Of a stretch of 64,000 nucleotides of DNA, positions 2,594-16,359 are shown one piece after another (within the stretch, counting starts at the first letter, position 1; each line of letters begins with the position of its first letter). The position numbers and the translations under genes are program-made. Below the pieces are notes generated by a model that was not told the DNA's origin, made no database searches, and saw only the letters and a program-made list of their open reading frames with translations. This DNA is from a phage: the NCBI GenBank assembly GCA_033580375.1, contig GCA_033580375.1_4527.1; one strand, written 5' to 3'.

Positions 2594-3074
2594 TAAAAAG
2601 GTAATGATTCCTAAATTAGGGCTCAAACATTATAATCTTTTAAAGGACGTTAAAGGTCCCGACGAAAACATGAAAATCTTAGCTGATTCTATTTGTAAAA
2701 ATATGAGTCCTGCAGATTTTGATTTTGCATGTCTACATATATTGGAATTTAATAACAAACTTAAGTCCGAAGTTGAAAAAGACGGATTCACTTATAAACT
2801 AGATGACGTCTATGTATGCCAACGAACAGAATTCCAATTTCAAGGTAATACTTTTTATTTTAGACCTCCAGGCAAATTTGAACAATTCGCTACAATCAGT
2901 GAAATGTTATCAAATTGCTTAATAAAAGTTAATGACGAAGAGAAAGAAATTTCTTTCCTTGAGATGCCTGCTTTTGTAATCAAATGGGCAGAAGACCTTT
3001 CGACAACTATTGCTATTCCAGGCCCTAATGGTCCTATTAAGGGTATAGCAGAAATTATTGGATTGCTTGAATGA
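2541..3074 (+). CDS. 28: baseplate hub distal subunit gp28
   Basis: 177-aa ORF with ATG and SD AAGG, overlaps 3' end of gene 27; size and synteny match T4 gp28. Confidence 0.75.
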
Positions 3075-7284: not shown

Positions 7285-7313
7285 TAGTATCACACATCCA
7301 TGTGCTTGTAAAC
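7285..7313 (-). promoter_or_regulatory. T4-type early promoter
   Basis: Minus strand GTTTAC-N17-TACTAT immediately after alt stop. Confidence 0.5.
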
Positions 7314-9400
7314 TATCCTTGAACAAATTTAAATGGAACCGATTCTAAATCCATTAAAGATGCTAACAGTTTCAATCCTTTAGGTGCACTGTTTATTTCT
7401 ACGAATGAGGCAAAAGATACTGGCTCATTTGATTCGATTTCACCCGTCATAGCAACCACCTCGCCTGTTTCCATGAGAACATCACCGTCGTAAATGACTG
7501 CTTCATCCAACTGGTCTGAGGACATGACTTCGGCTTGAATAAATTTAAGGTTGGATTCTAAACCTGCACCAGTGTCAGATGACGCATCTGTAATTTTATT
7601 TATCTGCAAGAGAATGCCTCTAGGCAAAATAATTTCTTGCTCATTAGGGTGATTACTCAACTGTCCTGGATAAATCACGTTAACTTTATGGGCGCCATCA
7701 ATAGCCCATCCAACGTTAACACGGATTTGTTCTGGTGCATGCATAGCTGTTCTTACTTGACTAGGAGAAATAGTAACACCTTCGTCATTATTGTCAATGT
7801 TAAGCTCTTTGCGAACTTCTTCAGGAGCAAGTCCAAGGGCAACGTTCTCTTTAAACCCGCCGAAAATAATAGGAGCTAGTGAAGTAGAAACATAGTTTCT
7901 GAAGTAGAATACCTTATTTTTAACCATTGCTTCGTAAATAGGCATTCTGATAGACTGAGCTCTATACAACGTTAGTCCTTCAGGTAAACGGTCTCCATTT
8001 AAAAACGCCGAATCAAGACCATCAATAGCGCGTTTAACTTCATCTTCATCTGCAACATCATAAAAATCCGGTTTATAACGACCTAACAACATATTATTGA
8101 TATCGGTATACGCAGAAGAGGCATATTCACGAATAGCTCGTTTTTCAGCAACAGAGTATTGTTTAGGGTCACGATTCATTGTTATATTAAAGGTGCCTCT
8201 AGCCGATTCTCGTGCATAAGTATACATCACATTAGACAAGAACGCTGATTTACGTTGTTTCCAAGTTTTTTCAGATACTTCAGCTAAAACGTCGTCAGCC
8301 AGCTGGAAATTATCACGTCTAAAATCTTCAAACCATTCGTCTTTAATAGAGTCTGCAATTTCATTTGCAGCTTCAACAAAAGCAGCTAATGCTTTAACAG
8401 ATGTTGTTTTTTCAGTTTTAATTTTCTTAGCAAACTTTTCTAAAGTCGGCTTAATAACACTACCATAAGAAACTTCATCAGCAAATCTAAAGGATTCATC
8501 AATACGATTATAAATCTTATTTTCGATATCAGCAACTAAAGTGCCTTTTGCTGTGGACGATGCTTGGGCTAGTACGATTTCATATGCTTCAGGAAGTAAT
8601 TCGGCTGTAGCCGGGCCGCTAACTTCTTTAGCAGAATTTTCGTATTTCTGGAATAGCTCACCTTCTTGGCGATCTGCTTCTAAAGATTGACTTGCTGCAA
8701 TAGCTCGACGAGAAATTTTAGTACGAGCAATAACAGGCTTATCTTTACGTTTTTCTTCTACAGCAGCAATAGAACCAGCTATAGCCGTTTCTTTGGTGAC
8801 TTTTTCGCCAGTCTTTTTACTCACATAAACTTCACCAACATCAGAATCTACTTTCGTGTACAACTCTGTGTTAATGTTAGGGATGCCTTTAATATCTTCA
8901 ATGTTGGCATTTTTACGAACCATCATCACATATGTGTGTTTACCTGTGAATTGATACATTGCAGACAATACTTTAAAACGACCACCAGTTTTAGTAGAAA
9001 CTAAACGAGCAAGAAGAGTTTGAAGTTGTTGTCCACGTCCTTTCAATTTCTTGGTAGGGAATCGGAACAGAACTGCATCCATACGAAGAGCTTTAACCTG
9101 TTCATACACTGTATTGAAAATGGTGTTGATTGCATCAATAGGAGCAGGACCAAGGCCATTTTTCAATTCAGCGAGATTACCCTTTTCAGACAGACTCATA
9201 ATAACAACATGAGCGTATTTGTCGCCAAGTTTAACTTGTTTTACAGCGTCGCCTTCGGAAAGGTAAGAGAATAAACGAACTACGATGTTTGTATCGATAT
9301 CACCAATTTTCCAGACTTGTGGAACTTTAGCTTTAGGGTTCAAATTGATGACAGGAAGACTGCCTTCAGATTCAAACACTTCATTTAATTGTTCAGACAT
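7313..9400 (-). CDS. alt: ADP-ribosyltransferase Alt
   Basis: 695-aa ORF (T4 Alt is 682 aa), position between gene 54 and DNA ligase, SD AAGGA. Confidence 0.8.
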   Translation of the reverse strand: MSEQLNEVFESEGSLPVINLNPKAKVPQVWKIGDIDTNIVVRLFSYLSEGDAVKQVKLGDKYAHVVIMSLSEKGNLAELKNGLGPAPIDAINTIFNTVYEQVKALRMDAVLFRFPTKKLKGRGQQLQTLLARLVSTKTGGRFKVLSAMYQFTGKHTYVMMVRKNANIEDIKGIPNINTELYTKVDSDVGEVYVSKKTGEKVTKETAIAGSIAAVEEKRKDKPVIARTKISRRAIAASQSLEADRQEGELFQKYENSAKEVSGPATAELLPEAYEIVLAQASSTAKGTLVADIENKIYNRIDESFRFADEVSYGSVIKPTLEKFAKKIKTEKTTSVKALAAFVEAANEIADSIKDEWFEDFRRDNFQLADDVLAEVSEKTWKQRKSAFLSNVMYTYARESARGTFNITMNRDPKQYSVAEKRAIREYASSAYTDINNMLLGRYKPDFYDVADEDEVKRAIDGLDSAFLNGDRLPEGLTLYRAQSIRMPIYEAMVKNKVFYFRNYVSTSLAPIIFGGFKENVALGLAPEEVRKELNIDNNDEGVTISPSQVRTAMHAPEQIRVNVGWAIDGAHKVNVIYPGQLSNHPNEQEIILPRGILLQINKITDASSDTGAGLESNLKFIQAEVMSSDQLDEAVIYDGDVLMETGEVVAMTGEIESNEPVSFASFVEINSAPKGLKLLASLMDLESVPFKFVQG

Positions 9401-9420
9401 AGTGTTTTCCTTTTAGTAAT

Positions 9421-9428
9421 AATTTATA
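9421..9428 (-). promoter_or_regulatory. possible late-type promoter upstream of alt
   Basis: Minus strand CATAAATATAAATTATT contains the near-consensus TATAAATT about 20 nt upstream of the alt ATG. Confidence 0.3.
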
Positions 9429-9435
9429 TTTATGC

Positions 9436-9456
9436 CAAAAAGAGCCCGAAGGCTCT
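9436..9456 (-). terminator. intrinsic terminator
   Basis: Hairpin AGAGCC-UUCG-GGCUCU followed by UUUUUGG on minus strand, right after the upstream small ORF. Confidence 0.55.
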
Positions 9457-9644
9457 TAATCCACAATCGGGAGCAAAGTACGATAAACTTCAAAATTAGG
9501 GCCTTTTTCGTACCCATTAACGTTATCTACGAAAACCCGATACGAATTTTCATTAGGAAAATCTAATATAATCTGAGAGCAAGAGGTGGAAACATCTCCA
9601 CCGTCCTTCTTAGCTACAATAACTGTTTCTAAATAAGCTTTCAT
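9456..9644 (-). CDS. hypothetical small protein
   Basis: ORF-track ORF begins at GTG; trimmed to internal ATG (MKAYLET...) that overlaps the ligase stop as TAATG. Confidence 0.4.
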   Translation of the reverse strand: MKAYLETVIVAKKDGGDVSTSCSQIILDFPNENSYRVFVDNVNGYEKGPNFEVYRTLLPIVD

Positions 9645-11137
9645 TATAAACCTGTCTGGGACCACGGTCCAAATACGTCTTCAAATGAATCCGCTTCTGT
9701 TTTATCAAAACGGAACCCTTTAATAATTGGAAGGAAAATACCTACAGTACCTTCACGGCCTTTAGAATGAACCCAACCATTACATTCGCAATCAGCAATA
9801 CGTCCGATCAATTTACCTTCACGAGCTTCGGTCATTAATCGTTCACGGTCTAAATCATGACGCTCGTCTAAAGGAATAAGAACCTTTACACCGTCAACTG
9901 TTTTATGAGTTGTATCTTTAAAACCTGAACCACAATCAGTTGTAATACGACGACAACGTGATACGAGTTCGACACCACCCAATTTGTTAGGGTCTTTAGA
10001 GTGTTCATAGTATCCTACAACTTCTAAAGCGATATCAATAACTTCTTTAAATTTAATTAGGTTCTTAGAGCGTTTGTTTTCCCAATATGAATCACGGTTT
10101 TTAAGGATAATACCTTCAAGACCTTGGTCAACATATTTTTTATAAACCACTTTAGCTTCGTCAAGATTACGAACTAACTGATTTTCAATTGGCTCAATTC
10201 GCTTAAAGCCTTCAGCCATATTTTCAAGAGCAGCAAAACGAACATCGTATTTCTGACCTTTAATTTTGCCATCAGAATAGACTTCATCTAAAGGAACATA
10301 GTCCCAGGCTTGAAGAACCATACCTTCCGCTTCTTTAGGAGAAATAGTCCCTTGAAGAGATTTATTTGCTAAACCGTTTGAAGTGCTACGGTCTGCAACT
10401 TGTACTTCTTCGGATTCTTCATTATCACCAAATAAGAACGACAGGTCATTTCCTGAGCTCACAGCCTTTTTAATATCAAATGAATGATAAACTAATTCAC
10501 CGTCGATTAAAACCCCATTAGGGTGTCTTTCACGAGCTTCTTTAGTCATTTCCATTAGTTCATCCGCTAATAGAGTAAGACCATGGTATTCATTACCAGC
10601 ACGAGAAAAAAATTGGACACCGTCATCGCGAACTTCAGCGAAACAACGAGCACCATCTGCTTTTAATTGGGCAAATGCGGGCCATTTAATATTTTTAGTA
10701 ATCAATTTCTCATCATATGCAGATGCTAACATCTGTGGTTGCAATTGAATAAGTCCTGGCCACACCTTATTCGCGATAGACACTGAAGCACCTACTTCAA
10801 GGTCGCGCATCATTACACGACGAAGGACTTCTACATCATCAGGTTTACCGTCAGCGATATAACCCATGAGCTCTTTAATTGCTGCATTACCAGTGAGTTT
10901 ACGAGTGGCTAATGTGAACTCAATAAAATCCAACATGTCATCTAATTCAAGAAGACCATATGCTTGGGACCTTTCACCTGGTCCTGGCCATTTCTTAATA
11001 TAATACTGGATACCACGTGCATATGTTAAACGATACACACGTTCAAGTAATTTGTTGTCCTTATTTTTCTTAAGGATTTCCTGTTTTGTTTTAGTAGAAC
11101 CGATCGCAGCTATTTGGTTTAAAATATCTAAAATCAT
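9644..11137 (-). CDS. 30: ATP-dependent DNA ligase gp30
   Basis: 497-aa ORF with adenylation motif KADGARC; size and position match T4 gene 30. Confidence 0.9.
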   Translation of the reverse strand: MILDILNQIAAIGSTKTKQEILKKNKDNKLLERVYRLTYARGIQYYIKKWPGPGERSQAYGLLELDDMLDFIEFTLATRKLTGNAAIKELMGYIADGKPDDVEVLRRVMMRDLEVGASVSIANKVWPGLIQLQPQMLASAYDEKLITKNIKWPAFAQLKADGARCFAEVRDDGVQFFSRAGNEYHGLTLLADELMEMTKEARERHPNGVLIDGELVYHSFDIKKAVSSGNDLSFLFGDNEESEEVQVADRSTSNGLANKSLQGTISPKEAEGMVLQAWDYVPLDEVYSDGKIKGQKYDVRFAALENMAEGFKRIEPIENQLVRNLDEAKVVYKKYVDQGLEGIILKNRDSYWENKRSKNLIKFKEVIDIALEVVGYYEHSKDPNKLGGVELVSRCRRITTDCGSGFKDTTHKTVDGVKVLIPLDERHDLDRERLMTEAREGKLIGRIADCECNGWVHSKGREGTVGIFLPIIKGFRFDKTEADSFEDVFGPWSQTGL

Positions 11138-11403
11138 TTGATATCCTCGATTTTGGTTACGGTTCTATTATAAGCCACTTCATCTAGAAGCGATTTCAGC
11201 GTTTTCTGATAAGTGGTAACCCGTTTACCGAGTCCTTCAACATAATATTCTGAAATGTAGATGAACCCTTGTTCAACACACTCTTTAAATATTTCTGCGT
11301 CTTTTACTGAACGAAACAATGTCCAGTCTCGAAAGAACATGTTAACATGACCATAGTCACGTGTGGTATTTTTGCCATCTGTAATATCATGAACTACAAA
11401 CAT
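11134..11403 (-). CDS. hypothetical protein (30.1 position)
   Basis: 89-aa ORF, ATGA overlap with ligase start. Confidence 0.55.
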   Translation of the reverse strand: MFVVHDITDGKNTTRDYGHVNMFFRDWTLFRSVKDAEIFKECVEQGFIYISEYYVEGLGKRVTTYQKTLKSLLDEVAYNRTVTKIEDIK

Positions 11404-11412
11404 AATTAACCC

Positions 11413-12231
11413 TTAACAATTTATAGTCCATTTAGACGAATCTAAAGGAAAGTTTTGAATCGTCCGCCATGGCTGCATATCGGTTGGTCCTGGGGTTCGC
11501 CAGGTATATGGAGTACGTGTTGTCGAGGGGCCACCAATTTGATTAGGCCATGCACCTGGACTTGTTGCACCAGATTCTTTAAGCAAATCCGCCAATCGTT
11601 TTAAAAGGTCTTCACGATCTGAATCTGAATTATTCTTAGGCAGAACCAAACGAGATTCAATATCATCCCACGTGTGTACACGTTGTGCAGTACGAGGAAT
11701 ATCATCACGTTCACCACGGGCCAACCAATAAATCGGTACATTAAGAATTTCTGCCGCATGGTCACAATGATGAGCTAAATCGTCAACGTAACAAATTACG
11801 TTATATTTTGTTTTAGCTAGTTCGAATAATTGTTCCTTTGAAGAATCATGACCACACATCATTACTTCAGAGAAAGCGCCTGGGAACAAAGCATTCAAAT
11901 TAAATTGTCTATTCAATCGAGCATCAATTGAATCACCTAACGCCGTTACGGCTACAAAATTATAGTCTTCTTTTAGTTTATTGATAACTCGAAGAGCATC
12001 CGAATAAGGCGCTAAGTAACGAATAAAATCAGAGCGATTATATTTTTCTATTAATTGTTTACCAAGGTTATCGTCGGTATTGAATAGTTTACCAGGAGAA
12101 ATAAATTTTTCGTCCTGAATCATTTTTAAAATATGTTCTAATGGAAGATTATATTTTTGGGCAAAATAAGGAAGTCCAGATTGCCAGCTTAAACATACAC
12201 CATCAATATCAGTCAAAATAGTAGGCTTCAT
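11413..12231 (-). CDS. hypothetical protein (30.2 position), N-terminal DxDG HAD-like motif
   Basis: 272-aa ORF, ATG start, N-terminal LTDIDGV motif. Confidence 0.6.
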   Translation of the reverse strand: MKPTILTDIDGVCLSWQSGLPYFAQKYNLPLEHILKMIQDEKFISPGKLFNTDDNLGKQLIEKYNRSDFIRYLAPYSDALRVINKLKEDYNFVAVTALGDSIDARLNRQFNLNALFPGAFSEVMMCGHDSSKEQLFELAKTKYNVICYVDDLAHHCDHAAEILNVPIYWLARGERDDIPRTAQRVHTWDDIESRLVLPKNNSDSDREDLLKRLADLLKESGATSPGAWPNQIGGPSTTRTPYTWRTPGPTDMQPWRTIQNFPLDSSKWTINC

Positions 12232-12686
12232 AAAGAGTCTCTTAATAGGTTTAACACATCAATAAATTCAGCTTCGGTTAGTATTGTATCATCTTTTGTT
12301 AGGTGGCTGGCCATGCTATGCTTCAAAATTTTTCCTTTAGAGGCTTGTAAGGCATCGCGAAACCCCTTGTTTTGGATCGCTGCTTCAAAATATGCATTTG
12401 TGTATAATTCTTTCCACGCTTCAGAGTATCTTGAAAATGGAACTCCTAACCAGAAGAGAGTCCCATGGTCCTGAGCTCTTGCATAAGACCTTCCAGCTTG
12501 CTGTGCAGCCAATCCAGACAACCCAAATATACGTCTTTGTTGTTCAACATTTTTCACCTTACATCCTTGGAGAAATCCTTCAAGACCTCCGAATTGAATA
12601 CCATCCATGACAAAAGGCCATTGGGCGAAATTACTTAATGCACATGACGGCCATTTGAAATTACTTCTTATTTCTAATTCAGACAT
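12228..12686 (-). CDS. NADAR / YbiA-like (DUF1768) protein
   Basis: SNFAQWPFVMDGIQF resembles the YbiA motif SNFAAWPIKVDG; ORF-track start is GTG, trimmed to ATG (MSELEI...). Confidence 0.5.
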   Translation of the reverse strand: MSELEIRSNFKWPSCALSNFAQWPFVMDGIQFGGLEGFLQGCKVKNVEQQRRIFGLSGLAAQQAGRSYARAQDHGTLFWLGVPFSRYSEAWKELYTNAYFEAAIQNKGFRDALQASKGKILKHSMASHLTKDDTILTEAEFIDVLNLLRDSL

Positions 12687-12897
12687 CTTTAACACTTATA
12701 ATTTCAACATCAGCCCAATGACCATAACCAGGTATACGGTCTTCGATAGATAAATTTCCGTCATTTTTAGGCATTTTAATTGACGTAACGTATGGTTCTA
12801 AACGGTTTTCTGCATAATATGGAAAAACATCTGTTACACGATAAGTAACTTCAATCATTTCCGTACCAAACAATTTCTTGATTAATTTTTTAAGCAT
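12679..12897 (-). CDS. hypothetical protein
   Basis: 72-aa ORF, 8-nt overlap with downstream gene. Confidence 0.5.
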   Translation of the reverse strand: MLKKLIKKLFGTEMIEVTYRVTDVFPYYAENRLEPYVTSIKMPKNDGNLSIEDRIPGYGHWADVEIISVKDV

Positions 12898-12901
12898 TTT
12901 A

Positions 12902-13189
12902 TTAGAACCTCATCTGAAAGCCATGTGATTTAACATTACCGCCGCCGATATCAGAAATGTTAATTTCACTTGCAATCGAAGGATCGATGTCAATTTCACG
13001 ATTAAGTTTAGTGATAGCTAAAGTATCATGCCCATTTACTGTACGAAACTCCAAAGGACATACTACGTTGACATAGTGTTTAATTGACTCGCTAGTAGGT
13101 TGTAAATGGGCCGGAAGGTCTTTAGGTGCTTTAGAGAAAACAACTTCACAAAAGTTTTTGCGGGTATCAAAATAAGTGGTCATAAACAT
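12902..13189 (-). CDS. hypothetical protein
   Basis: 95-aa ORF with SD GAGGA, preceded by terminator hairpin. Confidence 0.55.
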   Translation of the reverse strand: MFMTTYFDTRKNFCEVVFSKAPKDLPAHLQPTSESIKHYVNVVCPLEFRTVNGHDTLAITKLNREIDIDPSIASEINISDIGGGNVKSHGFQMRF

Positions 13190-13205
13190 AATATTTTCCT
13201 CAATA

Positions 13206-13221
13206 GGGAGCCGAAGCTCCC
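13206..13221 (-). terminator. terminator/attenuator hairpin
   Basis: GGGAGC-UUCG-GCUCCC between two minus-strand genes; weak U tract. Confidence 0.45.
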
Positions 13222-13228
13222 AGTTAAA

Positions 13229-13594
13229 TTAGATATCGAATTCATTAAGAACTACATCAAAGATTGCTTCGAGATGTTCAGGTTTAGCTCGGTTACTCAG
13301 GATATGACGAATCCAAGTTTTAACCAGAAGTTTACGATTGACACCGTTCCAGCAAGGATGAGTACCTAAATCACGCTGACGGAAATCATCATCTAATGCA
13401 ATTTTGAAGTTGGAACCTTCCATCGTGATTGAAAGCGTGATGCCATTTTCAAATCGCATATAAACGTAATTAGGAGTCATGCACTGTTCGATTTCACAAA
13501 CTGTACCGTTTTTGTGTTTCCATAAGCAAATAACTTCAGAAGAACCAGCGATACCGTTAGAAACATATTTACGTTCGAAGTTGATGTAGTTCAT
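13229..13594 (-). CDS. hypothetical protein (CMTP-motif paralog A)
   Basis: 121-aa ORF, SD GGAGAATAAAATG, shares a CMTP motif and upstream cassette with the next gene. Confidence 0.6.
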   Translation of the reverse strand: MNYINFERKYVSNGIAGSSEVICLWKHKNGTVCEIEQCMTPNYVYMRFENGITLSITMEGSNFKIALDDDFRQRDLGTHPCWNGVNRKLLVKTWIRHILSNRAKPEHLEAIFDVVLNEFDI

Positions 13595-13635
13595 TTTATT
13601 CTCCAGATGTTTAAGTTGTTTGTTGGTACAGGTCT

Positions 13636-13664
13636 ATAATAACATAACCTGTACCAAAGTAAAC
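13636..13664 (-). promoter_or_regulatory. T4-type early promoter
   Basis: Minus strand GTTTAC-N17-TATTAT. Confidence 0.55.
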
Positions 13665-13668
13665 TGTT

Positions 13669-14037
13669 TTATGCAACTTTAATCCAATTGTCTAAATTTA
13701 AAACACCTTTGGCTTTCATTTTTTCGATCAGGTTATCTGCTGTAATGCGTCCATTTTGATACCATGTAACATCTTCAGAGTAACCAGTTTCTTCGTCAAC
13801 ATATGTTTCTGAACGAATTTTGCCGGTAATAATAGTTTTTAATTCGTATGTGTCACCTGTGAAAAAGTTTGCTAACACAATTTTCCAAGAGAAATCATTT
13901 GAAGGACCTTCAGGGGTCATACAACCTACGATCTCAAATTGCTCTTTGTATAACATCCACTGGAATTCTTTAATTTCGATAGCTTTATAACCGTCGTGGT
14001 CTTTACATTCGATGTATGAGTTCAGATTGATTTTCAT
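13669..14037 (-). CDS. hypothetical protein (CMTP-motif paralog B)
   Basis: 122-aa ORF, SD GGAGAATAAAATG. Confidence 0.6.
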   Translation of the reverse strand: MKINLNSYIECKDHDGYKAIEIKEFQWMLYKEQFEIVGCMTPEGPSNDFSWKIVLANFFTGDTYELKTIITGKIRSETYVDEETGYSEDVTWYQNGRITADNLIEKMKAKGVLNLDNWIKVA

Positions 14038-14079
14038 TTTATTCTCCAGATTGTTTTATTGATTAGGTGGTACAAGTCT

Positions 14080-14108
14080 ATAGTAACACATCCTACAGGA
14101 GAGTAAAC
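14080..14108 (-). promoter_or_regulatory. T4-type early promoter
   Basis: Minus strand GTTTAC-N17-TACTAT. Confidence 0.55.
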
Positions 14109-14144
14109 ATCTTTTTAAACTTTTTCTGCCCTAAACGCACAAAA

Positions 14145-14162
14145 GGGAGACCGAAGTCTCCC
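14145..14162 (-). terminator. intrinsic terminator
   Basis: GGGAGAC-UUCG-GUCUCCC then UUUUGUGCGUUUAGGGC on minus strand, downstream of the small basic ORF. Confidence 0.6.
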
Positions 14163-14167
14163 TAAAA

Positions 14168-14344
14168 TTATGCAACAACCTTTCCAAAACGAGAAGCATC
14201 ATCTCGAAGAACTGCACGTGCTCTGCGCATGATCTTCTCAACTGTTTGATTAATACGAGAGTTCGACCCACGCTTGTATCCAGCGCGTTTAGAATCACCG
14301 ACTTTCTTTTCAACTGCTTTCTTTGCTTTAGTTTGTTTTGCCAT
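14168..14344 (-). CDS. small lysine-rich basic protein (58 aa), not in ORF track
   Basis: ATG...TAA frame MAKQTKAKKAVEKKVGDSKRAGYKRGSNSRINQTVEKIMRRARAVLRDDASRFGKVVA ending just before the terminator; below the track length cutoff. Confidence 0.4.
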   Translation of the reverse strand: MAKQTKAKKAVEKKVGDSKRAGYKRGSNSRINQTVEKIMRRARAVLRDDASRFGKVVA

Positions 14345-14716
14345 TATAAATTCTCTTTAAATGAAAATGCAGGACTTATTGACATTGCCTGCTCAAGCCC
14401 TCAAGGGGAACATAGGTTTTTGGATATTTAACGACCAGGATAACCATAAACCCGTCATCATACCTTATAGCTCTTATCTGTTGCACACCGTTAGCTTAAA
14501 GGTTCCGGGTTCGATTTCTCGAGGATAAGATATATACTGATGGATATATAGGCCTTGAGGCGTACTCCCGATTAGCCATCACCTCGGGGTAGCATGCACT
14601 TACCGCTATAAGAACAACATTCAAGAGGTACACCGTAAAATTGTCGGGGCGGTACTTCTAAAACATACCGATTCGCAAATCGATAATCAGACAATTCGAC
14701 GGCTCCTCGATTTAAC
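14345..14716. other. ORF-free, relatively GC-rich island (candidate structured RNA or regulatory region)
   Basis: About 370 bp with stops in all minus frames, GC-richer than flanks, several short inverted repeats and a tRNA T-loop-like GGGTTCGATT. Confidence 0.3.
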
Positions 14717-14965
14717 TTACTTCAGGGTAATAACAAAATGACGAACTGCTTTACGAGCTGCTGAAGCCAGAGGCTTAGCATATTTCAATTCATCTTTCTG
14801 AGCCAGTACATCACGAAGATCGGCCTGTGCTGGATTCAGATGTTTGAAATATCGCAGGATTTCCAGTGCTTCGGCTTCAACATCAATTGACGCGCCGTAG
14901 TTTTCGTGGCCATTATTCCATGCATGGCGTTGCAGTTCAAGAGCGTGTTGTAATTGTTTAATCAT
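14717..14965 (-). CDS. rIII: rIII lysis inhibition accessory protein
   Basis: 82-aa ORF (same as T4 rIII), adjacent to gene 31. Confidence 0.7.
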   Translation of the reverse strand: MIKQLQHALELQRHAWNNGHENYGASIDVEAEALEILRYFKHLNPAQADLRDVLAQKDELKYAKPLASAARKAVRHFVITLK

Positions 14966-15081
14966 TTTAAATTCTCAATTCGAGATAATATTTAGTAGCC
15001 ACGTTCGTCTGAATTTCACCTTCTTTCGACAGGTCTCTCAGTTGTAGGCTACCGCTTAGAAGAGTGTTCTCTTCATATAGT

Positions 15082-15089
15082 TATTTATA
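15082..15089 (-). promoter_or_regulatory. T4-type late promoter (TATAAATA) upstream of rIII
   Basis: Minus strand TATAAATA immediately after gene 31 stop, about 115 nt upstream of rIII ATG. Confidence 0.45.
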
Positions 15090-15422
15090 TCACTTATAAA
15101 GACACGGAATAGCTTTATAGTGGCATGTTACGAATTTCTGTTTAATTTCTTTAGGTTGTTTAAGACCTAAAGCCACAAATGGATGTGGAACATTTCGAAT
15201 TTGTCCAACTGGTAGTGGAGTCAAATCACCGACTTCAACAAAACCTTCAGGAACATCAGGACCTACAGAATGAACTACACATAGTTCAGGAACTTCACCT
15301 TGAACACGTTTACCAATCACAAGTCCTGATTCGGTAACTTCTTCATCACCTGCTTGAGCGGGTTCAGAAACCAGAATGACATATTCACCAACAGCACGAA
15401 TTGGGAGTTGTACTTCAGACAT
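15090..15422 (-). CDS. 31: co-chaperonin gp31 (GroES-like)
   Basis: 110-aa ORF near-identical in pattern to T4 gp31 as recalled (MSEVQ...[16 protein letters not shown]...[11 protein letters not shown]). Confidence 0.9.
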
Positions 15423-15453
15423 CTTATTTCCTTGTTGTTTGACGATAGATTAA

Positions 15454-15478
15454 TAATACCATACTATTCGTAAAGCAT
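15454..15478 (-). promoter_or_regulatory. candidate MotA-dependent middle promoter for gene 31
   Basis: Minus strand MotA-box-like ATATGCTTTAC then 12 nt then TATTAT. Confidence 0.4.
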
Positions 15479-15479
15479 A

Positions 15480-15788
15480 TTACATAAGAAGCAAACGTTC
15501 GACCGGAGTACCATCAACCGAAATTACTTTATCAAGGCGGAAAGAACGCCACTGACCTAACTTGGTATCGAATGCTCGAACTGATTCACGAGGTTCATAA
15601 CGAACTTCTGTTGCCGGATTGTTATTTTCGTATTTGACTTCAAGTTCGTCGCGAGAAGCAAACATCGTACGAACATCACCGTTAGCCTTTTCAAATACAA
15701 CACAATGAACGCCTACAGACAGAATAGTTTTAATACGTTCACGAAGAACCATAGTTTCTTGTTCAGTTAAAATCATATTATTCACCAC
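15480..15788 (-). CDS. hypothetical protein
   Basis: 102-aa ORF between cd and gene 31. Confidence 0.55.
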   Translation of the reverse strand: MVNNMILTEQETMVLRERIKTILSVGVHCVVFEKANGDVRTMFASRDELEVKYENNNPATEVRYEPRESVRAFDTKLGQWRSFRLDKVISVDGTPVERLLLM

Positions 15789-16359
15789 AAAAGTTTCGGA
15801 TTTGTTCCCAATTCAGAGAACGAAGATTATTACGAGAGTACTGAATTACTTCAATACCAGCTTGTTTTAGAATGTCTGCCCAATTTTCAGGAGATCGGTC
15901 ATATAATTCTGCATATACAACCTTTTTAATACCTGACTGCGTAATAGCTTTAGTACAATCAGGACATGGAGAAAGCGTCGTATATAACGTAGCACCTTCA
16001 ATAGAATTACCTTTACGAGCGGCAAACAAAATTGCATTCAATTCTGCATGGATTTCATTATTAGCAGACCATGCACTATGAGCAGCTCGATGTTCTTTGG
16101 CTAAAACAAAATTATCTACCCGTCCAAATGCTGTAGTGCCTTCTTTATGTCCAGCAACGATGACTGGGATTGGTTTATTCTTCAACCAACCGTTTTCAGA
16201 TGCATGTTCGCAACAGTTAACGCCACCTGCAGGTGAACCGTTATATCCAGTAGAGATAATGCGTCCATCTTTTTCAATGACGGCACCAACTTTCCATGAA
16301 CAACATTTTGATTCTTGAGAAATCAGATATGCAATCTGAAGGTATGTGCTAGCTTTCAT
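15778..16359 (-). CDS. cd: dCMP deaminase
   Basis: 193-aa ORF (T4 Cd is 193 aa), zinc-binding HAELNAI and PCPDC motifs. Confidence 0.9.
   Translation of the reverse strand: MKASTYLQIAYLISQESKCCSWKVGAVIEKDGRIISTGYNGSPAGGVNCCEHASENGWLKNKPIPVIVAGHKEGTTAFGRVDNFVLAKEHRAAHSAWSANNEIHAELNAILFAARKGNSIEGATLYTTLSPCPDCTKAITQSGIKKVVYAELYDRSPENWADILKQAGIEVIQYSRNNLRSLNWEQIRNFCGE

Follow-up and report, generated by a model that had tools for sequence, protein, structure and literature searches.

An intact orthologue of T4 gene 30.3 (adfN) in an RB69-like Mosigvirus and its predicted role against DarTG1

The open reading frame at 12228..12686 on the minus strand of the window (the whole stretch of 64,000 nucleotides of phage DNA that was analysed, contig GCA_033580375.1_4527.1) is very probably an intact adfN, the orthologue of T4 gene 30.3, in an RB69-like Mosigvirus, and its product would clear ADP-ribose from guanine against DarTG1. 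For this gene the analysis showed orthology to the T4 gene, the NADAR fold, conservation of the active-site residues, a C-terminal helix that is intact, and a signature of purifying selection. The function of AdfN is already known, T4 gp30.3 being a characterised enzyme, and the value of the analysis therefore lies in annotation and in prediction.

Gene and genomic context

The 152-aa reading frame that the first-pass annotation had placed here was real, running on the minus strand from an ATG start codon to a TGA stop codon. A program-made list of open reading frames contained a longer version of 155 aa, beginning at an upstream GTG at 12695. The ATG was preferred because this start agrees residue for residue with the annotated genes of T4 and RB69. 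The gene and its overlaps with both neighbours are as follows.

12228..12686, minus strand: adfN (T4 gene 30.3 orthologue), encoding a 152-aa phage-type NADAR, predicted to be a guanine-specific DNA ADP-ribosylglycohydrolase; intact full-length allele
12679..12686, minus strand: 8-nt overlap of the adfN start codon with the end of gene 30.4, ATGTCTGA, read from the sequence
12228..12231, minus strand: ATGA overlap of the adfN stop codon with the gene 30.2 start codon, read from the sequence

The 8-nt overlap suggests that gene 30.4 and adfN may be translationally coupled within one co-directional gene string.

The source genome was of the RB69-like Mosigvirus type. The 2.6 kb around adfN showed 98.9% identity to Shigella phage ESh27 and 96.4% nucleotide identity to RB69. 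The gene was flanked by the orthologues of T4 genes 30.4 and 30.2 and lay near the ligase gene 30. All genes of this stretch were located on the minus strand, and their order in the direction of transcription was 30.9, 30.8, 30.7, 30.6, 30.4, 30.3, 30.2, 30.1, 30 (DNA ligase) and a gene for an Alt-like ADP-ribosyltransferase. T4 gene 30.5 had no counterpart here, and the gap between 30.4 and 30.6 (12897..12902) was 4 nt, as in RB69. The gene at 7313..9400 (minus strand) encoded a protein of 695 aa with an ADP-ribosyltransferase exoenzyme domain (PF03496, E = 6e-28), which is presumably the Alt orthologue. The presence of a phage ADP-ribosyltransferase (ART) and an ADP-ribose-removing NADAR in one co-directional string has been pointed out for T4-like phages (PMC9503650).

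A scan of 9400..15800 yielded 20 promoter-like sites, with 19.7 expected, and two terminator sites in all, with 4.7 expected and none of the two on the minus strand. Inside adfN, at 12446..12550 (minus strand), the start ATG of the internal out-of-frame T4 gene 30.3' (75 aa) was kept. As its frame meets a stop after 34 codons, 30.3' is not conserved in the window and, in this phage at least, is unlikely to be a genuine gene.

The similarity to T4 varied from gene to gene along the string (window 11134..14344, minus strand). The products of 30.3, 30.6, 30.7 and 30.9 had protein identities of 93-96% with a dS of 0.2-0.7, and those of the interleaved genes 30.1, 30.2, 30.4 and 30.8 had identities of 44-74%, with a dS of 0.9 for 30.4 and of 1.7-2.5 for 30.1, 30.2 and 30.8. 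Such a mosaic over 30.1-30.9 suggests either that these genes are under very different constraint or that Mosigvirus and Tequatrovirus have exchanged small segments by recombination.

Orthology with T4 gp30.3

The window protein matched PF08010 (Phage_30_3, "Bacteriophage protein GP30.3") with 231.2 bits at a cut-off of 36 (E = 4e-69), covering positions 1-138 of the 138 in the model, and phrog_652 with E = 1.3e-51. It was identical to T4 gp30.3 in 146 of 152 residues (96%) over the full length. The two proteins are equally long, are encoded in the same slot between 30.4 and 30.2, and have E36, K43, H123 and the C-terminal helix in common. They differ by six substitutions, K11R, H74R, E89P, I120V, M125I and H128G (the window protein having K11, H74, E89, I120, M125 and H128), two of which flank H123. 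The genomes are of different genera, Tequatrovirus for T4 and Mosigvirus for the window, and the 30.3' annotated in T4 is the frame that is broken by a stop in the window.

At an amino acid identity of 96% and a nucleotide identity of 89%, the comparison of adfN with the T4 gene gave a dN/dS of 0.06, a ratio which indicates that the gene has been under strong purifying selection. A tblastn search detected relatives of the protein in 1,511 phage records, with T4-like phages of Escherichia, Klebsiella, Shigella, Aeromonas, Acinetobacter and Vibrio making up most of them. The protein of Escherichia phage F2 (MN864145.1) was 100% identical to the window protein. In nearly every record among the matches listed the gene was labelled 'hypothetical protein', and a few had 'Bacteriophage protein GP30.3' or 'ybiA-like protein'; neither adfN nor NADAR occurred as a label among these GenBank/RefSeq phage records.

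Membership in the NADAR superfamily

The first-pass annotation had assigned the protein to the NADAR/YbiA fold on the strength of the motif SNFAQWPFVMDGIQF, which it compared with SNFAAWPIKVDG of E. coli YbiA. Both motifs had been quoted correctly, the first being residues 18-32 of the window protein and the second residues 30-41 of YbiA as translated from the K-12 record, and the assignment itself was confirmed by the family profile, hhalign, the PF08719 matches of relatives and the predicted structure. A relationship at the profile level was significant when the family was aligned to the YbiA family with hhalign, but it was not seen with the window protein alone, for which a Pfam search gave no match to PF08719 at E ≤ 1. 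A single-sequence search of PDB sequences with the window protein also gave no match at E ≤ 10. Profiles and structure were needed to show homology to NADAR proteins. The missing PF08719 match reflects the split of the family in Pfam, in which PF08010 is a sister model, and not an absence of homology. Within the NADAR/YbiA superfamily PF08010 forms the "phage NADAR" branch, and later papers credit de Souza and Aravind with recognising the phage gp30.3 group as a branch of NADAR.

The family alignment comprised 57 relatives with identities of 35-87%. A profile built from a 58-row version of this alignment, to which the T4 protein had been added, matched the NMR structure of YbiA (2b3w) with E = 0.0034 over the S-N-F ... 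E ... Q ... K stretch. When the gp30.3 family was compared by hhalign with an alignment of 43 YbiA relatives, a probability of 97.5% and an E-value of 8.7e-12 were obtained over 125 columns, which is nearly the whole of both proteins. Eight of the 57 relatives matched PF08719 directly, the best with E = 1.5e-7. An AlphaFold2 model of the window protein, built from the alignment of 57 relatives without the T4 sequence, reached a pLDDT of 92.7 and a pTM of 0.88. Its strong structural matches were NADAR structures only, and YbiA ranked second at a sequence identity of about 20%. The model had the alpha-helical core flanked by two small beta-sheets that characterises the YbiA fold. The window protein is best read as a minimal, core-only NADAR-fold enzyme; in the literature, phage NADAR is described as the core domain alone.

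Function known from T4 and predicted for the window protein

T4 gp30.3 was renamed AdfN (anti-DarT factor NADAR) after the DarTG1 resistance of T-even phages had been mapped to gene 30.3 (Johannesman et al., Nat Commun 2025, PMC11825919). In that study T-even phages needed AdfN in order to resist DarTG1, and AdfN was sufficient for this resistance: T4 and T2 without adfN were DarTG1-sensitive, and RB69 was rescued from DarTG1 by ectopic adfN (PMC11825919). Purified AdfN took ADP-ribose off DNA in vitro, and a two-hybrid assay gave no sign of binding between AdfN and DarT1 (PMC11825919). DarTG2 was not countered by AdfN, uninfected E. coli was not rescued from DarT1 by T4 AdfN, and non-T-even phages were barely helped (PMC11825919). 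Purified T4 gp30.3 hydrolysed G-ADPr, not T-ADPr, and did not rescue E. coli from DarT1 (PMC11125620). In vitro hydrolysis of guanine-ADPr, including RNA G-ADPr, has been reported for all NADAR families.

The removal of ADP-ribose from guanine and the counteraction of DarT-type toxins, which the first-pass annotation had proposed, have therefore been demonstrated for an orthologue that is 96% identical to the window protein. That the enzyme is active, that it is specific for guanine and that it is both necessary and sufficient against DarTG1 is taken from this literature on T4 and would hold for the window protein by analogy. In the published mechanism, infection triggers the DarTG1 of the host, DarT1 ADP-ribosylates guanine in the phage DNA, and replication is blocked. 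AdfN cleaves the N-glycosidic bond between guanine and ADP-ribose and leaves the phage DNA clean, without binding the toxin, so that replication can go on, as was shown for T4, T2 and rescued RB69. The window protein would act in the same way.

It is unlikely that AdfN acts mainly on soluble or RNA-linked ADP-ribose derivatives, DNA clean-up against DarT1 being secondary. Candidate substrates would be immune signals derived from ADPr, by-products of RNA repair, RNA guanosine-ADPr or side products that arise from the Alt-type ADP-ribosyltransferase of the phage itself. The Alt-like ART at 7313..9400 (PF03496, E = 6e-28) lies in the same co-directional string, RNA G-ADPr removal in vitro is reported for all NADAR families, and AdfN is no antitoxin in uninfected cells, all of which would fit such substrates. 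However, deletion of adfN in T4 and T2 has a strong and direct DarTG1 phenotype with ectopic rescue, purified AdfN de-ADP-ribosylates DNA, and no phenotype linked to soluble ADPr is reported in the AdfN/NADAR literature cited. The linkage to alt is moreover ordinary T4 synteny, which is lost in distant phages that keep adfN.

T4-type AdfN is fully effective only during infection by T-even phages (PMC11825919). That it needs a phage-encoded partner for which gene 30.2 would be a candidate, for example in processing the released ADP-ribose or in recruiting AdfN to replicating phage DNA, is nevertheless very improbable. The gene 30.2 orthologue (11413..12231, minus strand) encodes 272 aa, starts with MKPTILTDIDGVCLSW and has a HAD-phosphatase-like D-x-D-G-V motif (N-terminal D-I-D-G-V). 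Its match to Pfam HAD_2 was below threshold (E = 0.02), and some GenBank records call it HAD-like. The adjacency of adfN and 30.2 was kept in an Acinetobacter T4-like phage. No gp30.2 gene was found next to adfN in the Aeromonas, Vibrio and Ralstonia phages examined, and among 80 IMG/VR loci encoding an AdfN relative only 21 had gp30.2 within 4 kb. Because of these results 30.2 is not a conserved partner, and a conserved functional pair was rejected, the local synteny being limited to the nearer relatives of T4.

Active site

Clearance of guanine-linked ADP-ribose by the window protein would depend on three residues that are mechanistically relevant in NADAR proteins, namely a Glu (E43 of Phytophthora NADAR, PnNADAR; E88 of E. 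coli C7), a Lys (K50 and K95, respectively) and a residue of the last strand, for which the YbiA family has Glu, DarG1 has Asp and phage NADARs have His (PMC11543638, PMC11125620). Their counterparts in the window protein were E36, K43 and H123, encoded at the following positions.

12558..12581, minus strand: active-site helix motif E-x3-Q-x2-K, codons E36-G-F-L-Q-G-C-K43, with the catalytic Glu and the phosphate-binding Lys (from invariance, alignment and T4 mutants)
12318..12320, minus strand: codon of H123, the histidine in the last strand that is the mark of phage NADARs (from invariance in 57 relatives and the predicted strand 120-123)

The helix motif aligned with E48..Q52..K55 of YbiA and with E43/K50 of PnNADAR (SSE..KRK motif). 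E36, G37, F38, Q40, K43 and H123 were all invariant among the 57 relatives. In T4 AdfN, the exchanges E36A and K43A abolished most of the activity and allowed only partial rescue (PMC11825919). H123 was located in the strand 120-123 of the AlphaFold2 model. In the hhalign alignment H123 was set 1-2 columns off the YbiA Glu, and its exact register is for this reason an inferred one; the two fit when the alignment is anchored on the T-G-x-A-x-L shared by the family consensuses. From the literature and from this anchor, H123 appears to be the counterpart of PnNADAR E125 and E. coli C7 D171. Hydrolysis by AdfN would proceed through E36 and K43, as shown for T4, and through H123, by homology to D171 and E125. 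By analogy with the crystal structure of the Phytophthora NADAR with ADP-ribose, the distal ribose would lie between E36 and H123, with the pyrophosphate held by K43.

The first-pass annotation had doubted catalytic competence, as the window protein has E-G (E36-G37) where YbiA has E-H (E48-H49). Although this difference in sequence is correct, the doubt did not stand up. PnNADAR, which has been crystallised and is active, has E-Q at this position, and an "EH dyad" is therefore not a requirement of the family. G37 is invariant in the gp30.3 family and T4 AdfN is active with E-G, and catalytic inactivation through this replacement was thus ruled out. There is next to no chance that the window protein is a catalytically dead NADAR relic which acts, if at all, by binding. 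G37 in place of YbiA H49, the His where other NADARs have an acidic last-strand residue and the lack of a direct PF08719 match could be taken as signs of decay, but T4 AdfN is active with the same E36-G37 and H123, its function is reduced by E36A and K43A, and it showed no binding to DarT1 in the two-hybrid assay. The invariance of E36, G37, K43 and H123 in 57 relatives, the dN/dS of 0.06 and the E-Q of the active PnNADAR likewise argue against a relic.

Comparison with the YbiA and DarG1 families

E. coli YbiA and Phytophthora NADAR (PDB 2b3w and 8bau; PF08719) share the motifs S-N-F ... D-G ... E-x3-Q-x2-K with the window protein at sequence identities of 18-20%. The catalytic Glu is followed by H in YbiA, by Q in PnNADAR and by G in the window protein. 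The last-strand Glu that defines the YbiA family is replaced by His: the consensus of this strand is L-x-H-S in the gp30.3 family and V-E-H-T, with an invariant E125, in the YbiA family, and the window protein has K122-H123 and no Glu. The Y-W-G-x-G which follows the last strand in YbiA relatives had no clear counterpart in the gp30.3 family in the hhalign alignment. A YbiA-type N-glycosidase of riboflavin-pathway intermediates, encoded by an auxiliary metabolic gene, can be dismissed as extremely improbable, for although E. coli YbiA carries an N-glycosidase annotation, came second among the structural matches and has lent the labels 'YbiA' or 'ybiA-like' to relatives in some metagenome sources and one GenBank record, its identity to the window protein is only about 20%, its defining Glu is a His here, no riboflavin-pathway genes surround adfN, and the published phylogeny places phage NADARs nearest the DarG1-type and not YbiA.

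DarG1 (BC4488 family; Geobacter lovleyi NADAR, PDB 8bat; E. coli C7 NADAR) catalyses the same hydrolysis of guanine-ADP-ribose with the same catalytic Glu and Lys, and the DarG1-type is the branch nearest to phage NADARs in the published NADAR tree (PMC11825919). However, the gene for DarG1 adjoins the DarT1 toxin gene, whereas adfN of the window is flanked by the 30.2 and 30.4 orthologues. DarG1 has an N-terminal beta-beta-alpha extension with a basic DNA groove and is 219 aa long in 8bat, while the window protein has 152 aa and, in the AlphaFold2 model, a single short strand (residues 3-6) before the S-N-F motif and no such extension. The last strand carries Asp in DarG1 and His in the window protein, and T4 AdfN, unlike DarG1, does not neutralise DarT1 in uninfected cells. 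No match to the DarT family was found, and the PADLOC defence models, among which DarG-type antitoxins would be represented, gave no match to the window protein; adfN is therefore an orphan antitoxin-like gene. Its identity as DarG1 was rejected, since an adjacent DarT1, the last-strand Asp and the N-terminal extension were all missing. A copy of adfA (T4 61.2), the other anti-DarT factor, was not found in the window by tblastn; a T4-type map would put adfA outside the window.

Intact allele of the window and frameshifted allele of RB69

RB69, the closest well-known genome, encodes a gp30.3 with 96% amino acid identity to the window protein over residues 1-137. In RB69 a T inserted at gene position 411 shifts the frame, so that the protein ends at T137 and the last helix is lost. 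The DNA alignment showed that the window does not have this extra T and that all 152 residues are encoded, including the terminal helix, which comprised residues 138-151 in the AlphaFold2 model.

12231..12275, minus strand: C-terminal alpha-helix, codons for residues 138-152, lost in RB69 by the frameshift (from the AlphaFold2 model and the DNA alignment)

Shortened T4 AdfN has reduced activity (PMC11825919). RB69, with its naturally truncated AdfN-RB69, is DarTG1-sensitive, whereas the window allele is of full length. The 61-nt segment of RB69 with the insertion (RB69 2745..2805, corresponding to window 12246..12305) occurred exactly in only 2 RB69 records among 598 matching phage records, and the best 60 DNA matches to adfN all covered the full 459 nt. 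The 60-nt 3' segment of the window was present at an identity of at least 99% in 442 records by summary count, but only 7 of the 12 matches listed were identical to 100%, and no weight is put on this count. From the exact matches and the full-length coverage, the window adfN is judged to be the common intact allele, and the +T frameshift seems to be particular to the stock or lineage of RB69 and not a trait of Mosigvirus.

With 96% identity to T4 AdfN, intact length and conserved residues, the window allele is predicted to behave like T4 AdfN, and on these grounds the phage, unlike RB69, would resist DarTG1. Bas46 and Bas47, the two closest RB69 relatives tested, were DarTG1-resistant (PMC11825919); this is consistent with resistance of the window phage, to which they are likened as relatives of RB69 and not by sequence.

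Significance

The results point to an annotation gap, in which a gene mostly recorded as hypothetical could be named adfN and described as encoding a guanine-specific DNA ADP-ribosylglycohydrolase, a counter-defence against DarTG1. The new point is an RB69-like genome with an allele, predicted to be functional, that RB69 lacks; the gene is otherwise ordinary. The state of the allele bears on host range, as the reference RB69, with a weakened frameshifted allele, is blocked by DarTG1. Because its allele is intact, the window phage is predicted to plate on DarTG1-bearing hosts.
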